Virus record (IMG/VR): IMGVR_UViG_2654587728_000013 | Location: 1 to 43,613 of that record | Strand: one strand, 5' to 3' | From: a virus | Taxonomy: Duplodnaviria > Heunggongvirae > Uroviricota > Caudoviricetes | DNA length: 43,613 nucleotides | Shown here: positions 429 to 41,311 of the stretch, piece after piece | How the letters are laid out: the number at the start of each line of letters is the position of its first letter | Numbering within the stretch: the stretch's first letter is position 1 | Position numbers and translations under genes: made by a program | The notes under the pieces: generated by a model | The model's database searches: none | Seen by the model: only the letters and a program-made list of their open reading frames with translations | What the model was told of the DNA's origin: nothing

Positions 429-1018
429 GCTGCCTCCGTCCTTACAACCGGAACAGAGCAGCCTGGTAGCAACTGCACCGACGGGCCTTCGCACTGATTG
501 CCCCATACGTCGAAACCATGTGACGACTGGCGGGCGAATAGCTCAATGCGCGGAACATCGCCCAGCAACTGCACCAGTTTTTCGCGGATGATGTCAGGCT
601 TGCGCGAGTTTTCCATGCGCGGCGCCGTGACGTGCTGGCAGATTGACGCATCCATGCGGGCCGGTAGTTTCCCACGCACCGCAAACAGGCAGTCTTCGCT
701 GTTCGCCCTTGTCATGTGGCCCATGCCGATCGCGCTGTTACCTTTGTGCTTATTCGTCTTGTGCCAGGTGAATCCCTTCATGGTCATCAGCTTGAAGCCC
801 CACGATTCGACCACTTTCAACGCCTCAACCGGCTGAGTAGGAACCCACCACATTGCCAGTAGGCAATCGTCGGCGGCAAGATCCCACACTGGCAGGCGGC
901 AGATATCCAGCACGTTCATCACCGGGTATTTAAACCCTGCTCCGCGCTCGCCGTCGGCTGCTTTGTCGCGGTATGTCCAGGGTGGATCTGCGTAGATAAG
1001 AGTGTATTTACCGGTCAT
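425..1018 (-). CDS. DNA N6-adenine methyltransferase, MT-A70 family (orphan phage methylase)
   Basis: 197 aa; motif IYADPPWTY (DPPW catalytic motif) near N-terminus. Confidence 0.85.
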   Translation of the reverse strand: MTGKYTLIYADPPWTYRDKAADGERGAGFKYPVMNVLDICRLPVWDLAADDCLLAMWWVPTQPVEALKVVESWGFKLMTMKGFTWHKTNKHKGNSAIGMGHMTRANSEDCLFAVRGKLPARMDASICQHVTAPRMENSRKPDIIREKLVQLLGDVPRIELFARQSSHGFDVWGNQCEGPSVQLLPGCSVPVVRTEAA

Positions 1019-1179
1019 TCTGCACCGCCTTTCACGAAAATGTTCATCAGCTCAGCAATGCGCTGAGCCTTTAATGGGTTTTTGATAACCTTTCTGCCTG
1101 GCACAATCCATCCGCAACGAAGAGCTGAATAAACCAGCGTGATGCTACCTACGCGGATATTGTCGTGAGGGTTAGTCAT
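1015..1179 (-). CDS. small hypothetical protein
   Basis: ORF 1015..1254(-); start trimmed to MTNPHDN to avoid overlap with upstream gene; stop overlaps methylase start. Confidence 0.3.
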   Translation of the reverse strand: MTNPHDNIRVGSITLVYSALRCGWIVPGRKVIKNPLKAQRIAELMNIFVKGGAE

Positions 1180-1471: not shown

Positions 1472-1580
1472 CGGATCCAGCCTTCTCTGAAAATTACCGC
1501 CAGCAGATACAGCCAGGCGGAAACGGCGGTCAGGAATAAGTACCATCCTGACCATTTTTCCCAGTGCCTGATCAGCGCTG

Positions 1581-1832
1581 TCATGCGGCGTTACTTACTG
1601 GGCGGTAAACACGCTGATCAACCGGCGGCTTTTTTCCGGTGAACTCTGCCGGGCTGGTGGCCTGACGCTCATCAAGCCAGTTTTCAACCTCTTCAGCATT
1701 CCATGCACAACGTTTATCAGTGATCCAGAAGCGCTGCGGGAACTCGCCATTGCGCTCCATGCGGTCAATGGTGCTCATCGATACCGGCACCACTGCCATC
1801 AGTTCCTTTTTGCCAAATGCTCTTTTCATCAT
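1581..1832 (-). CDS. AlpA-family HTH transcriptional regulator / excisionase-like
   Basis: 83 aa; KELMAVVPVSMSTIDRMERNGEFPQ...AWNAEEVENWLDER matches AlpA/Xis-type HTH pattern; RBS AGAGAGG upstream. Confidence 0.7.
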   Translation of the reverse strand: MMKRAFGKKELMAVVPVSMSTIDRMERNGEFPQRFWITDKRCAWNAEEVENWLDERQATSPAEFTGKKPPVDQRVYRPVSNAA

Positions 1833-1875: not shown

Positions 1876-2757
1876 TTACATCGGTACTTCGTTCAGTTCG
1901 TCGCAGCGAATGGTGTAAACGTCAGTTGCTTTTGCCAGCAGGTCATCATCACCAGCCAGTTTCTGGGCAACGTATTTGTATGCTTTGTCCAGGTCAGCCT
2001 GGGTGTTGTAGTTCATCGCCGCGCCGGAAAATGCGTGCAAAATCTCTTCAGGACCGCGATCGTCTTTATGCTGCTGACGCTCTTCCTGCTTCTGCTCTGG
2101 TTTTGAGTTGATCAGGCTGTTCATGCCATGAGCCGTTGCCGCAGATGGCGTGATGTCGCGCTCAACACGCGGTGTTGTCTCCTGCAATTCGTCAGGGGTG
2201 TATACTCCGAGCAGAACATCAGGTGCATGCAGACGAGCCCAACGCTTAACGCACAGGTAAGCAAGCTGCTGTCGTGGATCCTGTTCCCACAGCGGAGAGT
2301 TACGGACACCTGCCTGAGCCATGCTGATGGTAAGCTCGCGCGGCTCTGCTTCGCCTTTCAGTACTGCCGATACTGTTACGGTCAGTGATGGTGATTTGTC
2401 GCTCTTGCCATTCACCTTTGACCAGTCACCATCCCAGCGGTAATTCAGGCGAGTTGAAAGCAGGTTTGAAGAAGACACGACGGCGTTAACCAGTTGTGCT
2501 TCATAGCCAAGAGTTCCGTTTACAACGTGCGTCTTCTGCGCAACAGCGAACGGGTTCATGCCCCATTGCGCCGCCTGCATGGTAACTGCCAGACAATCAG
2601 CAGGCTTTCCTGCCAGGTGCTGAGGAACGGTTGCTTTACTGTCTGCCATCAGGGTTGCGAAACGTACCAGGCGGTCCATACCCTCAGGACTGAATATTGC
2701 AGCCGCTGTCCCTACGGTAGCGCCTGGCTGTGATGTGATTGCGATATCGTTGCTCAT
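1876..2757 (-). CDS. recT: RecT-family single-strand annealing recombinase
   Basis: DRLVRFATLMADSKATVPQHLAGKPADCLAV...QWGMNPFAVAQKTHVVNGTLGYEAQL is characteristic of RecT; start MSNDIA overlaps upstream stop (ATGA). Confidence 0.85.
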   Translation of the reverse strand: MSNDIAITSQPGATVGTAAAIFSPEGMDRLVRFATLMADSKATVPQHLAGKPADCLAVTMQAAQWGMNPFAVAQKTHVVNGTLGYEAQLVNAVVSSSNLLSTRLNYRWDGDWSKVNGKSDKSPSLTVTVSAVLKGEAEPRELTISMAQAGVRNSPLWEQDPRQQLAYLCVKRWARLHAPDVLLGVYTPDELQETTPRVERDITPSAATAHGMNSLINSKPEQKQEERQQHKDDRGPEEILHAFSGAAMNYNTQADLDKAYKYVAQKLAGDDDLLAKATDVYTIRCDELNEVPM

Positions 2758-3575
2758 ACGTACATATCCTGTTTTCGTGCCCATTCAGGGCGTTTAATAA
2801 TTTCCACGCCGCCCCATTCATCGCTGATGCGGCATTCGTGATAGGTGTTCAGATCCCGGCGGAATAACTGATGCCCGGCGTCAACATCTGGCGCATCCAG
2901 CTCGAACACGCGGACAGGGTATCGACCGCAGTCGATGGTTTCGCTCACAGCCAGGAAGAAGAATCCGTGTGGCTGCCCGGTTACTTTCAGTGCGCCTTCG
3001 CGGTACATGGCGTCCTGGACGTGGTAGCGGAATTCCTCGATGTGACGGGCAAAGCGATCCATGTCTGCAACTTTTTTCACATCTACGATCACGTTGTGCT
3101 CATTCAGCCATTTATCTGGACGGATTCGGCACAGTTCGCCAGTCTCTTCGTCATTCCAGTACATCGACGCTTCATAGTGACCTGGTGCTTCCAGCATCCA
3201 CCTCGCCGCAGGGTGGGCCATTGCGCTGTCGCGCATCAGTTTCAGTTTCCGGCCCTGCTCGGCATCCATCACCGTCATACCCATGTCGGCAACGTCTTTC
3301 AGGAATGCTTCTTCGTCTGCTTTTCCCTGATTTGTGCGTCGGTTGAACTGTGGCGCCACGATGAAACGCTTATCGAATTCCTTCGGCTCCAGCAGCAGGC
3401 AGTGCAGAGCAGTACCCATGTCCAGTGCCGATTTTTTCTCTTCATCTTCCGGCGCTGCCTTGACCCATTTCAGAAGGGCAGGGTTCTTGGCCACCATATC
3501 CAGTTGTGACTTACTCACGCCGTCACCGGCGTGGTAGTCCTCGTTGCTGATGTCGAAATAGATACCGGTATTCAT
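2754..3575 (-). CDS. PD-(D/E)XK exonuclease (RecE/YqaJ-like partner of RecT)
   Basis: 273 aa; IVDVKK...EEFRYHVQ nuclease-like motifs; immediately upstream of and coupled to recT. Confidence 0.7.
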   Translation of the reverse strand: MNTGIYFDISNEDYHAGDGVSKSQLDMVAKNPALLKWVKAAPEDEEKKSALDMGTALHCLLLEPKEFDKRFIVAPQFNRRTNQGKADEEAFLKDVADMGMTVMDAEQGRKLKLMRDSAMAHPAARWMLEAPGHYEASMYWNDEETGELCRIRPDKWLNEHNVIVDVKKVADMDRFARHIEEFRYHVQDAMYREGALKVTGQPHGFFFLAVSETIDCGRYPVRVFELDAPDVDAGHQLFRRDLNTYHECRISDEWGGVEIIKRPEWARKQDMYV

Positions 3576-5032: not shown

Positions 5033-5188
5033 ATTACCATTTTGGTAATACCTGGAGATGCAGGAAAACCACGAAGTGGTGGTTTCTGCCTGAGCGATGC
5101 GCTCATGTATTACCTTTTGGGTAATAATCAGATCAAAAAGTGATTGTGTCAATAGGTATGACGAGAAAAAAATTACCGTTTTGGTAAT
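5033..5188. promoter_or_regulatory. OL-like operator triplet: ATTACC-N5-GGTAAT at 5033..5049, 5109..5125, 5172..5188
   Basis: Three perfect 17-bp palindromes spaced 76 and 63 bp; minus-strand TTGACA (5147-5152) 17 bp from GATTAT overlapping site 2. Confidence 0.6.
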
Positions 5189-5245: not shown

Positions 5246-5842
5246 TTACTTGCTTTTGTTCTGCTCAAACACGAAGTTAATGAATGAGGTGATCTTGTTT
5301 TTCTCTTCCTGAGGCAGAGCTGCATACAACCTGTGGTCGTAGTCGATAACACCAGGAGCGCCGACGGGAATAATCATCTCGTATGCTTCATGCCCGAACG
5401 CGCGCGCCAGGGAGGAAAGAACGCCGATAGTTGTGCTGACTTCCGCTTTCATAATCCGGTTAACTGTGGCCGGGCCAATACCAGCTGCTACAGCAACTTT
5501 CTTTTCTGATGTCATTTCCGTGTTCTTTCTCATCCAGGCATTGAGCGTGGCTGCAGCCTGCTTCTCTACAGTCCATTCGCCATCATCAGTGGCCGGAATA
5601 AAGATATCAGCCTGTACCGCGTCCAGTTCGTGATCGACATCAAGCCAGAACTTTTCTTTGCGCGCTGCTTCCTCAATGATACGCGCTGCATTTGGTCCGA
5701 TGTTTTTGATGCCAGTGCACCACCTGTTGACCAGGTTCTGCGAACGCTTCACACGTTCGGCAAAGCGCAACTGGGTATCATCGAAATCCCGGCGAATGAT
5801 TTCGTTAAGGTTTTTGCGTCTTATGTCATAAATACTTTTCAT
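5246..5842 (-). CDS. prophage repressor, tandem XRE-type HTH, no LexA-like peptidase domain
   Basis: 198 aa; two HTH-like segments (QLRFAERVKRSQNLVNRW... and EKKVAVAAGIGPATVNRIMKAE...); flanked by operator triplets; divergent from Cro-like gene. Confidence 0.6.
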   Translation of the reverse strand: MKSIYDIRRKNLNEIIRRDFDDTQLRFAERVKRSQNLVNRWCTGIKNIGPNAARIIEEAARKEKFWLDVDHELDAVQADIFIPATDDGEWTVEKQAAATLNAWMRKNTEMTSEKKVAVAAGIGPATVNRIMKAEVSTTIGVLSSLARAFGHEAYEMIIPVGAPGVIDYDHRLYAALPQEEKNKITSFINFVFEQNKSK

Positions 5843-5895: not shown

Positions 5896-5959
5896 ATTAC
5901 CATAAAGGTAAAGTTACCATAACGGTAATAATCATTGATTTTTTCACCAGAAAGGTAAT
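5896..5959. promoter_or_regulatory. OR-like operator triplet: 5896..5912, 5913..5929 (TTACC-N5-GGTAA) and 5943..5959 (TCACC variant)
   Basis: Divergent intergenic region between repressor and Cro-like gene; plus-strand TTGATT (5935-5940) then TAATAA/ATAATT about 17 bp downstream overlapping third site. Confidence 0.6.
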
Positions 5960-5997
5960 AATTCAGATATGAATAGACAGGCTGAGATAAGCAAAAT

Positions 5998-6231
5998 ATG
6001 AGTGACGAAAAAAAATTTGATTTCAAAAAGCACTGGCTGGGACTGTCTCCTGATGAGCGTGAAGCATTTGCAGATGAAGCCGGAACCACCAGTCATTACA
6101 TCCAGACTCACCTGACCGGGCGCCGCAAGATGCCGGGTAAGCGACTGATGGACGGGCTGTTTAAAGCATGTCGCTCCCGCGAATGGACAAAGTCTAAACC
6201 TGAATTAGTGCTCTTCTTCTACGACCGATAA
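5998..6231 (+). CDS. Cro-like HTH regulator
   Basis: 77 aa; first rightward gene divergent from repressor; HTH-like segment AGTTSHYIQTHLTGRRKMPGKRLMDGL. Confidence 0.5.
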   Translation: MSDEKKFDFKKHWLGLSPDEREAFADEAGTTSHYIQTHLTGRRKMPGKRLMDGLFKACRSREWTKSKPELVLFFYDR

Positions 6232-6595: not shown

Positions 6596-7414
6596 ATGAG
6601 CAGATACGCAACAGAGTGGGCATGGAAAACAAATCCGGGCAGCTCATCACTGAAACTCATCCTGCTCTCGATGGCTGATCGAGCCGATGAATACAACCTG
6701 TGCTATCCAAGCATCGAACGCCTGGTTACCGACACAAGCCTGAATAAAAAAACAGTTCAGGCTGGTCTTATTTCGCTCATCGGAATGGGGCTAATTTCAG
6801 ATACAGGAGAAAGAAAAGGGGCAACAAGAAGGGTCCGGGTTTTCTCTTTAAACATACCCAAAAACGGTAATGTTACCAATATTGGGAATATACCCAAAAA
6901 CGGGAAGTTGAATGATCCCAAAAACGGGAAGTTGAATGATCCCAAAAACGGGAAGTTGAATGATCCCAAAAACGGGAAGTTGAATGATCCCAAAAACGGG
7001 ATGCAGAACCTATCAGTTAACCAGTCATATAACCAAGAGAAGGAGAGGGGCGATAAAACTGGGGGTTTAGTGCCTCAGAGGACTGACGCTAACAACGCCG
7101 TGATTAACAACTTTGTCCCTCCTGGTGGACTGGGGCAATTCGGGAAATTTGTCATGCATGAGCACTGGTCACCATCGGATGATTTCCTCCGGGTGTCTTC
7201 ATTGCAGGGCATTAACCTGGATTGCCAGCCAACGCCACAGGAGCTTGCAGAGTTCAGGGTTTACTGGATGGCCGAGGGTAAGGCTTTCCACCATGCGCAA
7301 TGGGAGCAAAAACTTGCCAGACGTCTGCAGATCAGCAGACAGAACAAACTTACCTCACCTGAAAACAACGTACCGCACTGGAACAGTCCAGAGGCGTGGG
7401 AGGATTTCCTGTGA
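6596..7414 (+). CDS. replication initiation protein (lambda O-like) containing the origin iterons
   Basis: 272 aa; N-terminal HTH-like domain; internal PKNGKLND x4 repeats encoded by DNA iterons; followed by P-like gene. Confidence 0.75.
   Translation: MSRYATEWAWKTNPGSSSLKLILLSMADRADEYNLCYPSIERLVTDTSLNKKTVQAGLISLIGMGLISDTGERKGATRRVRVFSLNIPKNGNVTNIGNIPKNGKLNDPKNGKLNDPKNGKLNDPKNGKLNDPKNGMQNLSVNQSYNQEKERGDKTGGLVPQRTDANNAVINNFVPPGGLGQFGKFVMHEHWSPSDDFLRVSSLQGINLDCQPTPQELAEFRVYWMAEGKAFHHAQWEQKLARRLQISRQNKLTSPENNVPHWNSPEAWEDFL
6857..7000 (+). repeat. origin-like iteron array: 4 perfect 24-bp direct repeats (6893..6988) plus flanking partial copies
   Basis: CCCAAAAACGGGAAGTTGAATGAT x4, with CCCAAAAACGG partials at 6857 and 6989; lies inside the O-like gene as in lambda ori. 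Confidence 0.75.
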
Positions 7415-8232: not shown

Positions 8233-8249
8233 ATTACCAAAAGGGTAAT
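8233..8249. promoter_or_regulatory. operator copy ATTACC-AAAAG-GGTAAT
   Basis: Perfect TTACC-N5-GGTAA in intergenic region upstream of resolvase gene. Confidence 0.5.
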
Positions 8250-10737: not shown

Positions 10738-10756
10738 TATTACTTCGGTGGTAACA

Positions 10757-19746: not shown

Positions 19747-20070
19747 ATGGATCTGGTAAACCTCAAAACCGGCACCGACACCTATCAGGATGAGGAGGGT
19801 AAAACCCAGACTCGTGATGATTATCCGTGGGGCCTTTGCATTGAATTGAACAACGAGACGTTAGCCAAGCTAAAGGCAGCACCTCAATCTGCTGGCACTG
19901 AAGTAATGATCACTGCAAAGGCAACTATTCGCTCAACTTCTACCCGCGAAACGGAAGATGGAATGCAGCATAACGCCAGTCTGCAGATCACTGATATGGC
20001 GCTCAGTCCAGTATCCGGTGAGCAACCGAAGTCAGCAGCGCAAACTCTCTACGGTGGGGAGGATGATTAA
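19747..20070 (+). CDS. hypothetical virion protein
   Basis: ORF track start 19732 is TTG; ATG at 19747 with CAGGAG RBS preferred. Confidence 0.45.
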   Translation: MDLVNLKTGTDTYQDEEGKTQTRDDYPWGLCIELNNETLAKLKAAPQSAGTEVMITAKATIRSTSTRETEDGMQHNASLQITDMALSPVSGEQPKSAAQTLYGGEDD

Positions 20071-31427: not shown

Positions 31428-31724
31428 ATGCAAGCTATTGGTTTCATTGTTTACATAGTTGTTGGTCTTTTTCAGTTGGCTGCGATCATGGCTGGTCTTG
31501 AATCGTGGTGGGGACTGCACTGGATAGTGGCTGCACCCATTGCTTTCATCGTTAGTTATATCCCGTTGGTCGGTTCCATTGTTGGAATGGTTGGCGCTGT
31601 CGACGTATGGCGTTGGGAATGGTGGCAGGCAGGGCTTCTTTTCTTTGGCGGCCTGGTTTTTGCTATTGCGTGCGGGGGGATGTCTTCGTTCTTCGAATGG
31701 CTATCCTTCAGGAAAAGAGCGTGA
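31428..31724 (+). CDS. small three-TM membrane protein
   Basis: 98 aa; three hydrophobic helices; RBS AGGTGA; stop overlaps GTGACATGTCAC palindrome. Confidence 0.55.
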   Translation: MQAIGFIVYIVVGLFQLAAIMAGLESWWGLHWIVAAPIAFIVSYIPLVGSIVGMVGAVDVWRWEWWQAGLLFFGGLVFAIACGGMSSFFEWLSFRKRA

Positions 31725-31732
31725 CATGTCAC
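31721..31732. repeat. 12-bp palindrome GTGACATGTCAC (copy 3 of 3)
   Basis: Exact copy overlapping stop of 31428..31724; GC hairpin 25 bp downstream. Confidence 0.6.
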
Positions 31733-31748
31733 AAAGGCCACTGCACCC

Positions 31749-31771
31749 ACAAAAAAGCCCGCGTCGCGGGC
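31749..31771 (-). terminator. rho-independent terminator (minus strand; possibly bidirectional)
   Basis: GCCCGCG-T-CGCGGGC hairpin with A-run on plus / T-run on minus, directly after stop of 31772..32236. Confidence 0.55.
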
Positions 31772-32236
31772 TTACTCTTCTTCATCGCTACCAAAGAGCG
31801 GGTTATCGTTGTAGTCAGAGAGAAGAAACGGTATGTGCTCCCTCGAATACCCAACCACAACTATTTCATCTCCGTCTTTCGCATAGTGAATGCATTCATT
31901 TGAATGCTTCCCACCAGGGTTGAATTTTAAGTCAACAGTATGATTTCTGAAGGTGTTAGGATACCACGTGGGACCACAATGATAGTGCCAGTAATTTTCC
32001 TGCTCATAATTGTCTGAACCGGGAATTTTATCATAGTTGTCGTCAACCCAAGATGGCTTGTTTTTACCTACAAGCGTTCTGCCATTGGCAACATCTTCCA
32101 TAAAATTTTGGATGGTTTCCAACTCCAGGTCCGTGAGATGTGGTCCATCTACTGCGAAAGGTTCGTTACTGGCACCGGTTATAAAGCCAAATGCAACCCT
32201 AGGCTTAAACTTCAAGTTACACCCCTGACAGGTCAA
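31772..32236 (-). CDS. hypothetical protein with acidic C-terminal tail
   Basis: 154 aa; only start-like codon at 5' end is TTG immediately after in-frame TAA of upstream small ORF; start uncertain. Confidence 0.4.
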   Translation of the reverse strand: MTCQGCNLKFKPRVAFGFITGASNEPFAVDGPHLTDLELETIQNFMEDVANGRTLVGKNKPSWVDDNYDKIPGSDNYEQENYWHYHCGPTWYPNTFRNHTVDLKFNPGGKHSNECIHYAKDGDEIVVVGYSREHIPFLLSDYNDNPLFGSDEEE

Positions 32237-32404
32237 TTATTTTGCGCGAAATGCCGCCTTGAAGTCGTTGAAAGAAGTCCCTGACTGATAAGTCATGTCC
32301 TGGTCGCGATCTTTGTTAGCGCGACCAAGCATTACTTTACCAATGGCATCCCAGCATTGCTTGGCTTGCTCATTTTGTTGAGTCCGATTTTTCAACGCTG
32401 TCAT
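32237..32404 (-). CDS. small ORF (55 aa) in same frame as downstream 154-aa ORF
   Basis: Found by manual translation (below ORF-track size cut-off); strong RBS AGGAGA; ends at TAA followed in frame by TTG of next ORF. Confidence 0.35.
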   Translation of the reverse strand: MTALKNRTQQNEQAKQCWDAIGKVMLGRANKDRDQDMTYQSGTSFNDFKAAFRAK

Positions 32405-32418
32405 AGTGCGTCTCCTTC

Positions 32419-32435
32419 TTTACCTTTGAGGTAAT
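32419..32435. promoter_or_regulatory. operator copy TTTACC-TTTGA-GGTAAT over RBS of small ORF
   Basis: Perfect TTACC-N5-GGTAA. Confidence 0.5.
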
Positions 32436-32499
32436 ATTACGCGAATCTACGTCACACCGCCAATGATTATTTTATAGGCGCATCCCTGCGCCATCGTCA

Positions 32500-33198
32500 T
32501 CAGAACTTACCAGTCATGCTGTTGATGTACTGCGCATGAGTCTGGATATCGCGCAGGCATTTACTGGCGCCGACAATGTAGCTCATCATGGCCGCGAACT
32601 CTGCTACAGCACCTTCAACATCATGCCCGTCTGCGTCCAGTTGGCGTAGCAGGCTCATCATCAAAGAGTGCTCTGTCAGACCAAGAACACCTTCAGGTGA
32701 ATGGATGTGTTCACGGTAGTTTGGCTTGAGTGGGGCGCTGTATTCCTGTTTCTCTTCCGTCTTCATCGCTTCCAGAATGGCGGGCATGAAGCTGGCTACA
32801 ACCTTTTGCGCTTTGTCTGCCGGTGATAATTCTTCACGAACGTATCGACCAGTGCGGCGGATTTGCGGAAGAACGTCGCCAGTTACCCATTTGCGGAAAC
32901 GATAGGGGATAGTACCAGGAGTTACCGCATCGCGGCAGCGCAGGATCAGAGTGTAGAGGCCGGATTCAGAGATGATGAGGGTATTAGGGTTCCCTCGTTT
33001 TCCGTCGGTTAAAGCGACGGTATTCTTTTCGTCGTCATCCAATTTAAGCAGAGCATCACGGTTGTTTGATATACCAAGAGCATTACATACATCTAACGCA
33101 ATAAACCATGGCTCGCCGTCGATGATGATTGCACGAATATCGGCTTGCGATTCGAAAGAAAAAACTGAAGTATTTTTTTGAGTTGTCATAGTGATCAC
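32500..33198 (-). CDS. Bro-N domain antirepressor
   Basis: 232 aa; N-terminal FSFESQADIRAIIIDGEPWFIALDVCNALGI matches Bro-N; distinct C-terminal domain. Confidence 0.7.
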   Translation of the reverse strand: MITMTTQKNTSVFSFESQADIRAIIIDGEPWFIALDVCNALGISNNRDALLKLDDDEKNTVALTDGKRGNPNTLIISESGLYTLILRCRDAVTPGTIPYRFRKWVTGDVLPQIRRTGRYVREELSPADKAQKVVASFMPAILEAMKTEEKQEYSAPLKPNYREHIHSPEGVLGLTEHSLMMSLLRQLDADGHDVEGAVAEFAAMMSYIVGASKCLRDIQTHAQYINSMTGKF

Positions 33199-33457
33199 CT
33201 TTTAGTCTGGTTAATCACCACCGGAGGTTCCAATCTCGGAGGTGGTGAACTGTGCAGGGTTGGAACTACCGGCTAAAAGGACCCGGCGCACCTTTCGGTG
33301 CCCCCACACAGCCCACCATAATGCGAATGTGGCCGTGCTTAACGCATAAAAAAACCGCTTGCGCGGTGAATGCGCCTTTTAGTATCCGGGGTTCCAATCC
33401 CGGCACTGGATTTTGCCAGTGCCTGATCACTATGGCACAAGTATTTTGCGTTGTAAA

Positions 33458-33474
33458 TTTACCGTAAAGGTAAT
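33458..33474. promoter_or_regulatory. operator copy TTTACC-GTAAA-GGTAAT in antirepressor promoter region
   Basis: Perfect TTACC-N5-GGTAA. Confidence 0.5.
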
Positions 33475-33504
33475 AATAAACGCATTATGTAGGTTATTTC
33501 AACC

Positions 33505-33765
33505 TTATGTGGTTTGCTTGCGTAACTGTTCCGCACAGTAATCGAGATGCGTTTGCAGATCCTGCATGGTCATTTGAGAGCTTGTTACGTAATTCACAAG
33601 GGCAACCAATTCAGCCAGCGGCCCGTCAACGTTGAAGCCGTCTTTATCGAGTTCCCGCAGCAACTTCATCAGATGCGAGTCCTCCACCAGGGATCTAACG
33701 CCTACCGGCGTGTGTATTCTTTCCTCAAATCCTTCTTCCAGCGGATGGTGATACTGCCGTTGCAT
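33505..33765 (-). CDS. stand-alone paralog of the antirepressor C-terminal domain
   Basis: Aligns by eye to C-terminus of 32500..33198 (HLMKLLRELDKDGFNVDGPLAEL vs SLMMSLLRQLDADGHDVEGAVAEF); start at MQRQYHH with GGAG RBS. Confidence 0.5.
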   Translation of the reverse strand: MQRQYHHPLEEGFEERIHTPVGVRSLVEDSHLMKLLRELDKDGFNVDGPLAELVALVNYVTSSQMTMQDLQTHLDYCAEQLRKQTT

Positions 33766-33840
33766 CTCTTCTTCTCCATGCAATCACTGTATAAACATAC
33801 AGTAGCAGAAGATTTACTGACTATCCAGCACGAAATGTAA

Positions 33841-33857
33841 ATTACCTGTAAGGTAAT
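33841..33857. promoter_or_regulatory. operator copy ATTACC-TGTAA-GGTAAT between antirepressor paralog and tailspike
   Basis: Perfect TTACC-N5-GGTAA in divergent intergenic region. Confidence 0.5.
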
Positions 33858-33962
33858 AAAGTATGTGTTCATTCCTCATTAGGTTCATATAAGGTTTTTA
33901 TGGTAATACAATGATTCAGAGTGCATGCGCGCCGGGCGCAAAAGCAATCTGGAGAAAATGAC

Positions 33963-39689: not shown

Positions 39690-40120
39690 CATGGCATTTT
39701 TCATGGTACTGATTTCCGGTGACGGTATATAAAACGGTACGGTAAAAATCGGTTTCAGGAAAATTGTTGTCAGTCAATTAGTTATGCTTACCGTAAATAA
39801 TTGAGTGGGAATGATTTAACGTCTGGCAACAGCCTGCACGTAAAAGCAGTAAAGTACCTCTAAGCCCGCGTAACTGCGGGCTTTTTTGTTTTTGTATCTG
39901 GCACTTTCTGGCAGCTGTTAGCAACGGGAAGCACGGTTTTTTCAATGGAATTTTTGATGGTACTCTCTGGTTTCGAATTCAGGTTTGAAAAAGTACCATG
40001 TGATAAATTTCGGTTGAGTTATGGTATTTATTTTTTATAACTCAATTAAAAACAGAGAGTTAAACAAGTTTTCTGAATTTTTTACAACATGGTATTTTTG
40101 ATAAAGGAAAACAATAAAAC
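39690..40120. other. candidate attP / integrase arm-site region
   Basis: Non-coding 430 bp upstream of int with repeated ATGGTA(C/T)T elements at 39702, 39955, 40019, 40088 and inverted copy AGTACCATG at 39992. Confidence 0.4.
39862..39893 (+). terminator. rho-independent terminator after lysis cassette
   Basis: AAGCCCGCG-TAACT-GCGGGCTT followed by TTTTTGTTTTT. Confidence 0.7.
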
Positions 40121-41311
40121 ATGTTGACTGACACCAGGCTGCGTCACCTTAAGCCGAAGGAGAAACTCTATAAAGTTAATGACCGTGATGGTCTGTATGT
40201 TGCGGTCACTCCGGCTGGAACTATTTCATTTCGTTATAACTATTCAATAAACGGAAGACAGGAGACCGTTACTTTTGGCCGCTATGGTGTTGGAGGGATC
40301 ACGCTTGCAGAAGCGCGTGAACGGCTCAATGAAGCTAAAAAAATGGTTGCCAGTGGAAGATCGCCAGCGAGGGAAAAAGCTAGAGATAAAGCTCGTATCA
40401 AAGATGCGGAGACTTTTGGTGCATGGGCTGAGAAATGGTTACGCGGTTATCAAATGGCTGAATCGACGCGTGATATGCGGCGTTCGGTATATCAAAGGGA
40501 GTTGAAGTCAAAATTTGCGCAGCAGAAATTGACCGAGATTACACATGAAGACTTACGCGCATTAACCGATAACATTGTCGAGAGAGGGGCACCGGCGACA
40601 GCTGTGCACGCCAGAGAGATTGTATTGCAAGTCTATCGCTGGGCTATTGAGCGCGGTCAGAAGGTTGAGAATCCCGCTGATCTGGTACGGCCTGCAAGCA
40701 TAGCGAAATTTGAGCCTCGTGACAGGGCATTGACGCCAGTTGAAATTGGTCTGATGTATCGGTACATGGAACGGGTAGGAACGACGCCATCAATCAGAGC
40801 AGCGGTTAAACTTTTGCTGTTAACGATGGTACGTAAAAGTGAGCTTACTAACGCAACCTGGAACGAGATCAATTTTAGTGAGGCATTATGGACGATACCA
40901 AAGGAGAGGATGAAACGACGTAATCCACATTTGGTTTTTCTTTCCAGACAGGCAATGGATATTATGATTGCTCTCAAAACCTTTGCCGGTAGCTCTGATT
41001 TTATCCTTCCTTCGCGGTACGATTCCGATGCGCCAATGAGTAGCGCTACTTTAAACCGGGTTTTGACACTGACGTATCGTCTGGCTCAGAAAGAAGGGGA
41101 CTTGTTACCTAAGTTTGGTCCCCATGACTTACGGCGTACTGCCAGCACCTTGCTACATGAGGCCGGGTACAATACTGACTGGATTGAGAAGTGCCTTGCC
41201 CATGAACAAAAGGGGGTACGAGCTGTTTATAACAAGGCTGAATATCGTGAGCAGAGGGCCGAGATGCTACAAGATTGGGCGAATATGATTGATGAATGGA
41301 CTAGTAAGTAG
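40121..41311 (+). CDS. int: site-specific tyrosine integrase
   Basis: 396 aa; N-terminal arm-binding-like domain (LTDTRLRHLKPKEKLYKV), C-terminal catalytic region with HDLRRT and conserved Tyr context. Confidence 0.9.
   Translation: MLTDTRLRHLKPKEKLYKVNDRDGLYVAVTPAGTISFRYNYSINGRQETVTFGRYGVGGITLAEARERLNEAKKMVASGRSPAREKARDKARIKDAETFGAWAEKWLRGYQMAESTRDMRRSVYQRELKSKFAQQKLTEITHEDLRALTDNIVERGAPATAVHAREIVLQVYRWAIERGQKVENPADLVRPASIAKFEPRDRALTPVEIGLMYRYMERVGTTPSIRAAVKLLLLTMVRKSELTNATWNEINFSEALWTIPKERMKRRNPHLVFLSRQAMDIMIALKTFAGSSDFILPSRYDSDAPMSSATLNRVLTLTYRLAQKEGDLLPKFGPHDLRRTASTLLHEAGYNTDWIEKCLAHEQKGVRAVYNKAEYREQRAEMLQDWANMIDEWTSK

Follow-up and report, generated by a model that had tools for sequence, protein, structure and literature searches.

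How is a phage repressor inactivated when it carries no peptidase domain of its own? The question is raised by a gene at 5246..5842 of a 43,613-nucleotide stretch of viral DNA (Caudoviricetes; IMG/VR record IMGVR_UViG_2654587728_000013, referred to in its entirety as the window), which encodes a 198-residue repressor, Rep. An initial annotation, made by inspection of the letters alone, had paired Rep with a Bro-N antirepressor circuit, had reported no LexA box and had left the induction trigger undefined. We find that the window is very probably (at a probability of roughly 0.85) the genome of an epsilon15-like phage (Uetakevirus) with an antirepression switch of the type described for Salmonella phage SPC32H, in which the Bro-N protein is a candidate second antirepressor belonging to a separate control layer. 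Coordinates of the features discussed are collected in Table 1.

Rep, Ant and the LexA box

The region 5246..5842 consists of a single long open reading frame (ORF) on the minus strand, and in a hidden Markov model search HTH_3 was found in its product and Peptidase_S24 was not. Pfam places HTH_3, a helix-turn-helix (HTH) family, in two stretches of Rep, the best match spanning residues 109-150 (E = 1.6e-8), and reports a weak Cro-like HTH at residues 25-61, while in PHROG models residues 1-86 form an N-terminal repressor-like part and residues 96-197 a C-terminal one. Over its full length Rep is 97.5% identical to chain A of PDB entry 5D50, 'Repressor', which is the Rep of SPC32H; it is likewise 97.5% identical to 5D4Z_A, also 'Repressor', where the match comprises residues 92-198, the C-domain, and it is 98.5% identical to the annotated repressor of epsilon15. 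At the level of DNA the rep region is 94-95% identical to epsilon15, SPN1S and SPC32H, all of which are Salmonella uetakeviruses. Rep has the build of its SPC32H counterpart throughout: approximately 198 residues, an N-terminal HTH and a C-domain at residues 92-198, with no protease domain.

Phage repressors of the lambda CI kind, and LexA itself, are inactivated by RecA-stimulated autocleavage, a fate that is recognized by a C-terminal S24 domain with its Ser/Lys dyad and by a cleavage site in the linker, and neither of these is present in Rep. No Peptidase_S24 match was obtained in Pfam even at E <= 1, 198 residues leave no room for a protease domain, and the linker (residues 73-91) contains neither Ala-Gly nor Cys-Gly, the latter being absent from the whole protein. 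What could be offered in favor of autocleavage is the sole Ala-Gly, at residues 120-121, but this pair is located inside the HTH of a C-domain whose structure has been solved (5D4Z). Moreover, induction in this phage group is described in a review as antirepressor-mediated (PMC7380047). Lacking both an S24 domain and a linker cleavage site, Rep gave us no reason to retain RecA-type cleavage, which we reject and to which we attach virtually no credence. The initial annotation, which had described two HTH-like segments, no S24/LexA-like C-terminal domain and an unlikely RecA-mediated autocleavage, was right in all three respects; as judged from its sequence, Rep would not be inducible by self-cleavage, and it would be an antirepressor that inactivates it. 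The primary SPC32H paper is said to state that Rep itself is not cleaved.

A partner for Rep is found at 33505..33765. The product of this gene had been taken for a C-domain-only paralog of the Bro-N protein; it is 100% identical to chain E of 5D50, 'Anti-repressor protein', and identical to the annotated SPC32H Ant, whose gene occupies the same position beside the tailspike gene. Because Rep and Ant are both chains of a single crystal entry, 5D50, the pair has a solved complex. With 86 residues, and with a gene that lies outside the immunity region and next to the tailspike gene, the protein has all the attributes of an SPC32H-type Ant. The Ant domain was found in 35 of 50,697 phage records, every one of which encodes a Rep homologue as well; confinement of the fold to Rep-encoding genomes favors the view that Ant-like domains are directed at proteins of the Rep family. 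In a later paper that recounts the 2016 structure work (PMC9638917), Rep is described as binding DNA as a tetramer and tetrameric Ant as binding two Rep dimers, thereby breaking the Rep tetramer.

Contrary to what had been reported at first, a LexA box is present in the window and lies directly ahead of ant. The pattern CTGT-N8-ACAG occurs once in the window, as CTGTATAAACATACAG at 33787..33802, within the site CACTGTATAAACATACAGTA. The consensus match of the full site, 17/20, is unique in the window (0.00 expected) and was equalled in no shuffle, and the next best CTG-N10-CAG site in the window has 7 mismatches. The 16-bp core, CTGT-N8-ACAG, is identical between the window and SPC32H, and the pattern is present in 7/7 related loci, in each case upstream of the small ant gene where ant is annotated. 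In the 601-bp ant region SPC32H and its sister phage SPC32N differ by 2 bases, one of which, a G-to-T change, falls in the LexA box and turns CTGT into CTTT. Kim and Ryu reportedly found in 2013 that this mutation of the SPC32N box makes Ant constitutive and the phage lytic. A LexA box thus occupies the ant promoter, as in the SPC32H-type switch, and the induction trigger, previously left undefined, is therefore defined as SOS, with LexA cleavage expected to lead to Ant and to release of Rep. The review cited above likewise has Ant of the SPC32H type made after LexA self-cleavage (PMC7380047).

The Rep, Ant and LexA steps have been shown for SPC32H, and we infer them for the present phage from protein identities of 97.5% and 100% and from the identical core of the LexA box; our account of SPC32H itself draws on two citing papers (PMC7380047, PMC9638917), on the PDB records and on the comparison of SPC32H with SPC32N. 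During lysogeny Rep would be bound to 15-bp palindromes of the form TTACC-N5-GGTAA on both sides of rep, shutting the divergent early promoters, and would also find single or paired operator copies ahead of other transcription units, with LexA on the SOS box keeping ant silent. DNA damage would result in RecA-stimulated cleavage of LexA and in production of Ant, which would bind the C-terminal domains of Rep, capture the N-terminal DNA-binding domains and free Rep from the DNA, so that the lytic genes are turned on.

Exact copies of TTACC-N5-GGTAA number 12 in the window, as compared with 0.00 expected. An operator pattern with a 6-base spacer was also tried and gave no match, the correct spacing being 5 bases. 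The operator triplets that had been reported to flank rep are indeed there, and the copies reported near the Bro-N and ant genes correspond to the three exact operators of that arm, at 33842, 33459 and 32420. The left set overlaps a P_L-like promoter (TTGACA-17-GATTAT, 5152..5124, minus strand), and the right set overlaps a P_R-like promoter (5935..5962, plus strand) directed towards the cro-like gene. In the GenBank record of epsilon15 the corresponding sites carry 'repressor' protein_bind features, the counterpart of the operator at 33842..33856 being the repressor site 19895..19911; this operator is kept in SPC32H and, with one mismatch that gives a TCACC half-site, in phiV10. Even among Rep proteins that have diverged to 42% identity, the N-domain is conserved and the operator half-sites are unchanged.

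Further exact operators, at 8234, 8296, 10722 and 14252, lie ahead of other transcription units. Together with a Rep-type site at 10740, and going by the epsilon15 annotation, they stand in front of the RuvC-like gene, the small terminase gene and the portal region, a layout which suggests that Rep may silence several late or middle transcription units directly and not the early promoters alone.

Table 1. Features of the window that relate to the Rep circuit and to the Bro-N module
Feature	Position	Strand	Description	Basis
Left operator set	5034..5187	.	3 exact sites (5034, 5110, 5173) between the rep 3' end and the leftward early genes	
rep	5246..5842	minus	198-residue repressor: N-terminal HTH DNA-binding domain, linker, C-terminal HTH-fold domain (92-198)	Identity to PDB 5D50_A/5D4Z_A; Pfam HTH_3; no S24
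Right operator set	5897..5962	.	5897 and 5914 exact, 5944 with 1 mismatch; between rep and the cro-like gene	
cro-like early regulator	5998..6231	plus	77 residues, divergent from rep	PHROG 35 'transcriptional repressor', E = 3.4e-11; homologue of epsilon15 gp39
Two ORFs of unknown function, end of module	31772..32404	minus	55 residues (32237..32404) and 154 residues (31772..32236)	PHROG 8607/5954 pair
Rep-type operator	32420..32434	.	Just upstream of the ribosome-binding site of the 55-residue ORF	Also at this position in E. coli CP8-3 and TL-2011b
Bro-N::Ant-like fusion	32500..33189	minus	229 residues from ATG 33189 (232 from GTG 33198); Bro-N 21-111, Ant-like ~150-225	
Bro-N leader with C4 targets	33198..33233	minus	a' UUGGAAC (33227..33233); b' CUAAAAGG (33198..33205), part of the Shine-Dalgarno sequence	
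C4 antisense RNA	33238..33323	minus	Full-length family match	Rfam RF01695, 77.1 bits vs gathering score 45
IsrK-like small RNA	33348..33422	minus	a1/b1 copy of the C4 targets	Rfam RF01394, 76.1 bits vs gathering score 50
Rep-type operator	33459..33473	.	Adjoins, on the upstream side, the -35 hexamer of the promoter-like site of isrK	
ant	33505..33765	minus	86-residue antirepressor, predicted cognate inactivator of Rep	100% identical to PDB 5D50_E and to annotated SPC32H ant
LexA (SOS) box CACTGTATAAACATACAGTA	33785..33804	.	20 bp upstream of the ant ATG	17/20 to the E. coli consensus
Rep-type operator	33842..33856	.	ant/tailspike intergenic region; adjoins a minus-strand TTTACA hexamer	

The Bro-N gene and its proposed RNA control

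The product of 32500..33198 is, as had been proposed, a Bro-N protein, encoded on the minus strand and with its real start at ATG 33189, as indicated by homologues and by the position of the Shine-Dalgarno sequence. Its Bro-N domain (PF02498) is detected by Pfam with E = 1.9e-20 and 73.7 bits, the cut-off being 25.6. The paralogy between its C-terminus and the small Ant is also confirmed, residues 150-224 being 41% identical to Ant over 75 residues (E = 5e-22), and the same C-domain matches 5D50_E with E = 3e-16. As a whole the protein belongs to PHROG 130, 'anti-repressor Ant' (E = 1.8e-52), and is 67% identical, Ant-like C-domain included, to the ORF4 anti-repressor of phage ZX5. Overexpression of the latter reduced repressor mRNA by 75% and brought the number of lysogens down from 1e9 to 1e6, in a study that treats ORF4 as the only anti-repressor and in which the small Ant, LexA, SPC32H and the RNAs are unmentioned (PMC9782041). 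It is plausible that the Bro-N protein of the window also serves as an antirepressor.

It could be argued that the Bro-N protein is the principal antirepressor, the small protein being no more than a paralog and the trigger something other than LexA. Bro-N domain proteins are often annotated as antirepressors, overexpression of the ZX5 homologue promoted the lytic route (PMC9782041) and a Rep-type operator lies upstream of the Bro-N module. It is the small protein, however, that is identical to the Ant crystallised with Rep, and it is the small ant gene that has a LexA box of its own; furthermore, SPC32H and epsilon15 have the same rep, ant and LexA box and are without a Bro-N gene or any Bro-N module. 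We therefore regard a leading role for the Bro-N protein as improbable. Of the pairing of Rep with a Bro-N circuit that was first suggested, inactivation by an antirepressor stands, and the structurally proven partner is the 86-residue Ant of 5D50. The Bro-N protein would be a second route under a separate IsrK/C4 module and is not the core of the circuit or its main trigger. Its module is common to the E. coli uetakeviruses ZX5, TL-2011b and phiV10, to phage Tyrion and to a Citrobacter prophage; when genome contigs were scanned with the Bro-N protein, a single close locus was obtained, in Citrobacter werkmanii (80%), along with two distant ones.

Two RNAs precede the Bro-N gene, an IsrK-like small RNA and a C4 antisense RNA that conforms to its family in both sequence and structure. 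In C4 the b2 loop, CCUUUUAG (33273..33280), and the a2 segment, GUUCCAA (33260..33266), are both unpaired in the predicted fold. The first of these is complementary to CUAAAAGG at the Bro-N Shine-Dalgarno sequence and the second to UUGGAAC, 22 nt further upstream. IsrK repeats both C4 target sequences (a1 at 33391..33397, b1 at 33375..33382), and in the window C4 forms perfect 7-nt and 8-nt pairs with the leader as well as with IsrK. As expected of an upstream IsrK element, the RNA has its own terminator (33367..33354); a promoter-like site, TTTACA-17-CATAGT (33457..33429, minus strand), ends 7 nt before its 5' end. The adjoining operator, 33459..33473, is kept in 6/7 uetakevirus-type loci, with PH444 having TTGCC in one half-site. 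A 32-residue ORF with a GTG start (33211..33309) is located in the C4 region and stops 21 nt before the Bro-N ATG with no overlap, and b' covers the Bro-N Shine-Dalgarno sequence directly.

Pairing between these elements was measured by site-specific complementarity counts, whole-RNA duplexfold having given uninformative long duplexes. Over seven uetakevirus-type loci, triplets change together in C4, leader and IsrK (GUU/AAC, ACG/CGU and AGA/UCU), and in Tyrion a compensating one-base insertion is found in all three. For 18 loci that represent 16 specificities, the summed complementary runs between C4 and the leader average 16.7 nt for cognate and 11.8 nt for non-cognate combinations; the corresponding values for C4 and IsrK are 14.9 nt and 10.2 nt. 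What is observed is therefore the covarying, two-segment complementarity across the ribosome-binding site (RBS) of an antirepressor gene by which a C4 module is known. Relatives of the isrK-C4 cassette were found in 334 phage records, mostly of Stx phages. In those loci that were fetched and are gene-annotated, what follows the cassette is either an unnamed ORF or a gene whose annotation reads ant or antirepressor, and Rfam RF03163 ('c4-a1b1, a1, b1 targets of C4 antisense RNA') overlaps isrK in several relatives' loci. One phage, PPyecE_EH1910, has two tandem isrK-C4 cassettes (885..1073 and 1541..1729 of its locus) with different a/b specificities.

By analogy, the C4/IsrK layer is of a known kind, represented by P1/P7 immI, by P4 seqA-CI-seqC and by Gifsy-1, in which IsrK supplied in trans activates translation of the AnrP antirepressor ~140-fold (PMC4825925). 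Applied to the present phage, C4 would block translation of the Bro-N gene and the decoy sites of IsrK would titrate C4, so that the Bro-N::Ant-like protein, were it the second antirepressor that we take it to be, would be held back by the one RNA and released by the other. With the Bro-N promoter linked to Rep occupancy, the protein would appear only after derepression or on infection, and would then either reinforce the inactivation of Rep or act in trans on the Rep of related resident prophages. As a precedent for the latter we cite FsoA of Fels-1, which is under phage-repressor control, has no role in the induction of Fels-1 and inactivates a foreign repressor (PMC3121763).

The same precedent can be turned into a different proposal, namely that the Rep of its own phage is no target of the Bro-N protein, which would instead be an anti-immunity factor directed at the repressors of other prophages, like P22 Ant or FsoA (PMC3121763), or some other DNA-binding regulator. 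The phiV10 Bro-N protein is annotated as a 'putative anti-immunity protein', the isrK-C4 cassette is mobile, occurring in its 334 records alongside many different repressors, and the Bro-N C-domain is only 41% identical to Ant. Restriction of the Ant fold, within the phage collection, to genomes that encode a Rep homologue nonetheless argues for the Rep family as target, and ZX5 ORF4 affected the lysogeny of ZX5 itself (PMC9782041). The proposal also overlaps in part with our own explanation, which allows for action in trans. All things considered we think it unlikely, while continuing to give it some weight.

Several observations weigh against our preferred reading, in which an SPC32H-type switch is supplemented by a second, Bro-N-containing antirepressor of Rep. 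At 41% identity between the Ant-like domain and Ant, a conserved Rep-binding surface is a presumption, and some relatives, phiV10 among them, carry a Bro-N protein without a tblastn-detectable Ant-like C-domain. With its centre near -44, the Rep operator of the isrK promoter could serve for repression or for activation. Finally, the Rep C-domain, the part that binds Ant, is only 37% identical to that of the phiV10-type Rep (53% for the N-domain), yet the small Ant shares 88% identity with that of ZX5, which reportedly has a Rep of the phiV10 type (PMC9782041). Conservation is thus much stronger in Ant than in the protein it targets, a hint that Ant may cross-react between phages of different immunity type.

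The phiV10 Bro-N protein consists of 194 residues (2254..2838 of the phiV10 locus) and is encoded behind the same isrK-C4 cassette; by tblastn it has no Ant-like C-domain, the genome containing one Ant-like place, while TL-2011b and HEMP4 contain three such places. It appears that Bro-N proteins of this kind can exchange their C-terminal effector domain.

A broader view can be put forward, tentatively and with more doubt than conviction. A single Rep-binding fold would be placed under two independent controls, in the form of an Ant released by LexA and a Bro-N::Ant protein that is held by C4/IsrK and operated by Rep, with the second copy serving as a commitment lock once the first Rep molecules have been taken away, or as an SOS-independent or cross-prophage inducer. 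The 16 a/b specificities would then constitute an RNA-level immunity code that is distinct from repressor immunity. In our searches we found no paper describing such a two-control antirepressor arrangement in uetakeviruses.

Genome context

The matches of the ant/Bro-N region (31700..33900) in E. coli genomes are at only ~77% identity, and for this reason the window does not resemble an E. coli phage. One intact attP core, ATTGAGTGGGAATGATT, is found at 39800..39816, upstream of the integrase gene (40121..41311). The sequence of the core was taken from PMC9782041 and is the guaA 3'-end site of phiV10, epsilon15 and ZX5. With a single intact core upstream of integrase, the window must be in the order of an unintegrated phage and not in that of an integrated prophage. 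Comparison of the two ends of the window revealed no shared terminal repeat, and ARAGORN found no tRNA, though the intergenic RNAs have T-loop-like motifs.

The two ORFs at the end of the Bro-N module match PHROG 8607 and 5954, both of unknown function, and a bidirectional terminator (31755..31773) follows the 154-residue ORF. The latter has no match in Pfam or NCBIfam, and neither ORF has a defence match in PADLOC; several flanking ORFs are also without matches in NCBIfam and PADLOC. The cassette that these two ORFs form, together with its own Rep-type operator, is kept in E. coli prophages and in TL-2011b.

Downstream of the cro-like gene an ORF of 272 residues (6596..7414) contains a perfect 24-bp tandem repeat, CCCAAAAACGGGAAGTTGAATGAT, present in 4.5 copies at 6893..7001 and encoding the repeated peptide NDPKNGKL. 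It looks like the iterons of a replication origin placed inside an initiator gene, as in lambda O.

Relation to known systems

The core circuit is already known: it is the published SPC32H/epsilon15 switch. Each component, those of the Bro-N module included, has a described counterpart. The result is mainly a correction, in that the trigger is a plain LexA box and the supposed paralog a real antirepressor. Interest remains in the Bro-N::Ant-like gene, located behind an IsrK/C4 switch and a Rep operator, and, to a modest degree, in the presence of two antirepressors in one phage. Should the Bro-N protein act on Rep, the phage would provide a tractable case of one repressor with two antirepressors that respond to different inputs, and the effect on lysogeny of Bro-N proteins of the ZX5 type would be explained. 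The two-antirepressor question also bears on how prophages of Salmonella and E. coli induce one another.

The SPC32H switch was described by Kim and Ryu (2013, J Virol) and by Kim et al. (2016, PNAS). With it, and with gp38/gp19 of epsilon15, the window shares Rep and Ant (97.5% and 100% identical, respectively, to those of SPC32H), the 16-bp LexA core, the sequence and layout of the operators and the position of ant beside the tailspike gene. The window differs from both in having ~1.7 kb extra downstream of ant, comprising isrK, C4, the Bro-N::Ant-like gene and two small ORFs, so that the terminator which follows ant in SPC32H is replaced by the isrK-C4-Bro-N module. The order of LexA box, small ant, Rep operator, isrK, C4 and Bro-N gene is shared with the E. 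coli uetakeviruses vB_EcoP_ZX5, TL-2011b and phiV10, whereas their Rep is only 42% identical to that of the window and the a-site of their C4 reads ACGCCAA in place of GUUCCAA.

For the RNA layer the nearest relatives are P1/P7 immI (c4, icd, ant) and isrK-orf45-anrP of Gifsy-1, which likewise have a C4 RNA on the same transcript as its target, two short stretches of complementarity that extend across the RBS of the operon encoding the antirepressor, and an a1/b1 (IsrK) copy further upstream (PMC4825925). In the window b' covers the antirepressor's own Shine-Dalgarno sequence, and with the 32-residue ORF of the C4 region stopping 21 nt before the start, coupling of the icd or orf45 kind is not evident; the promoter has a Rep-type operator and the antirepressor the SPC32H Ant fold. 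The logic of a non-cleavable repressor and a small, LexA-controlled antirepressor encoded outside the immunity region is that of Gifsy GfoA/GftA, 186 Tum and N15 AntC (PMC3121763), with which no sequence relationship was found. The complexes differ in architecture as well (PMC9638917, PMC3121763): a tetramer of Rep, with its two HTH domains, combines with an Ant tetramer to give a hetero-octamer, whereas the Gifsy complexes are A2B2.

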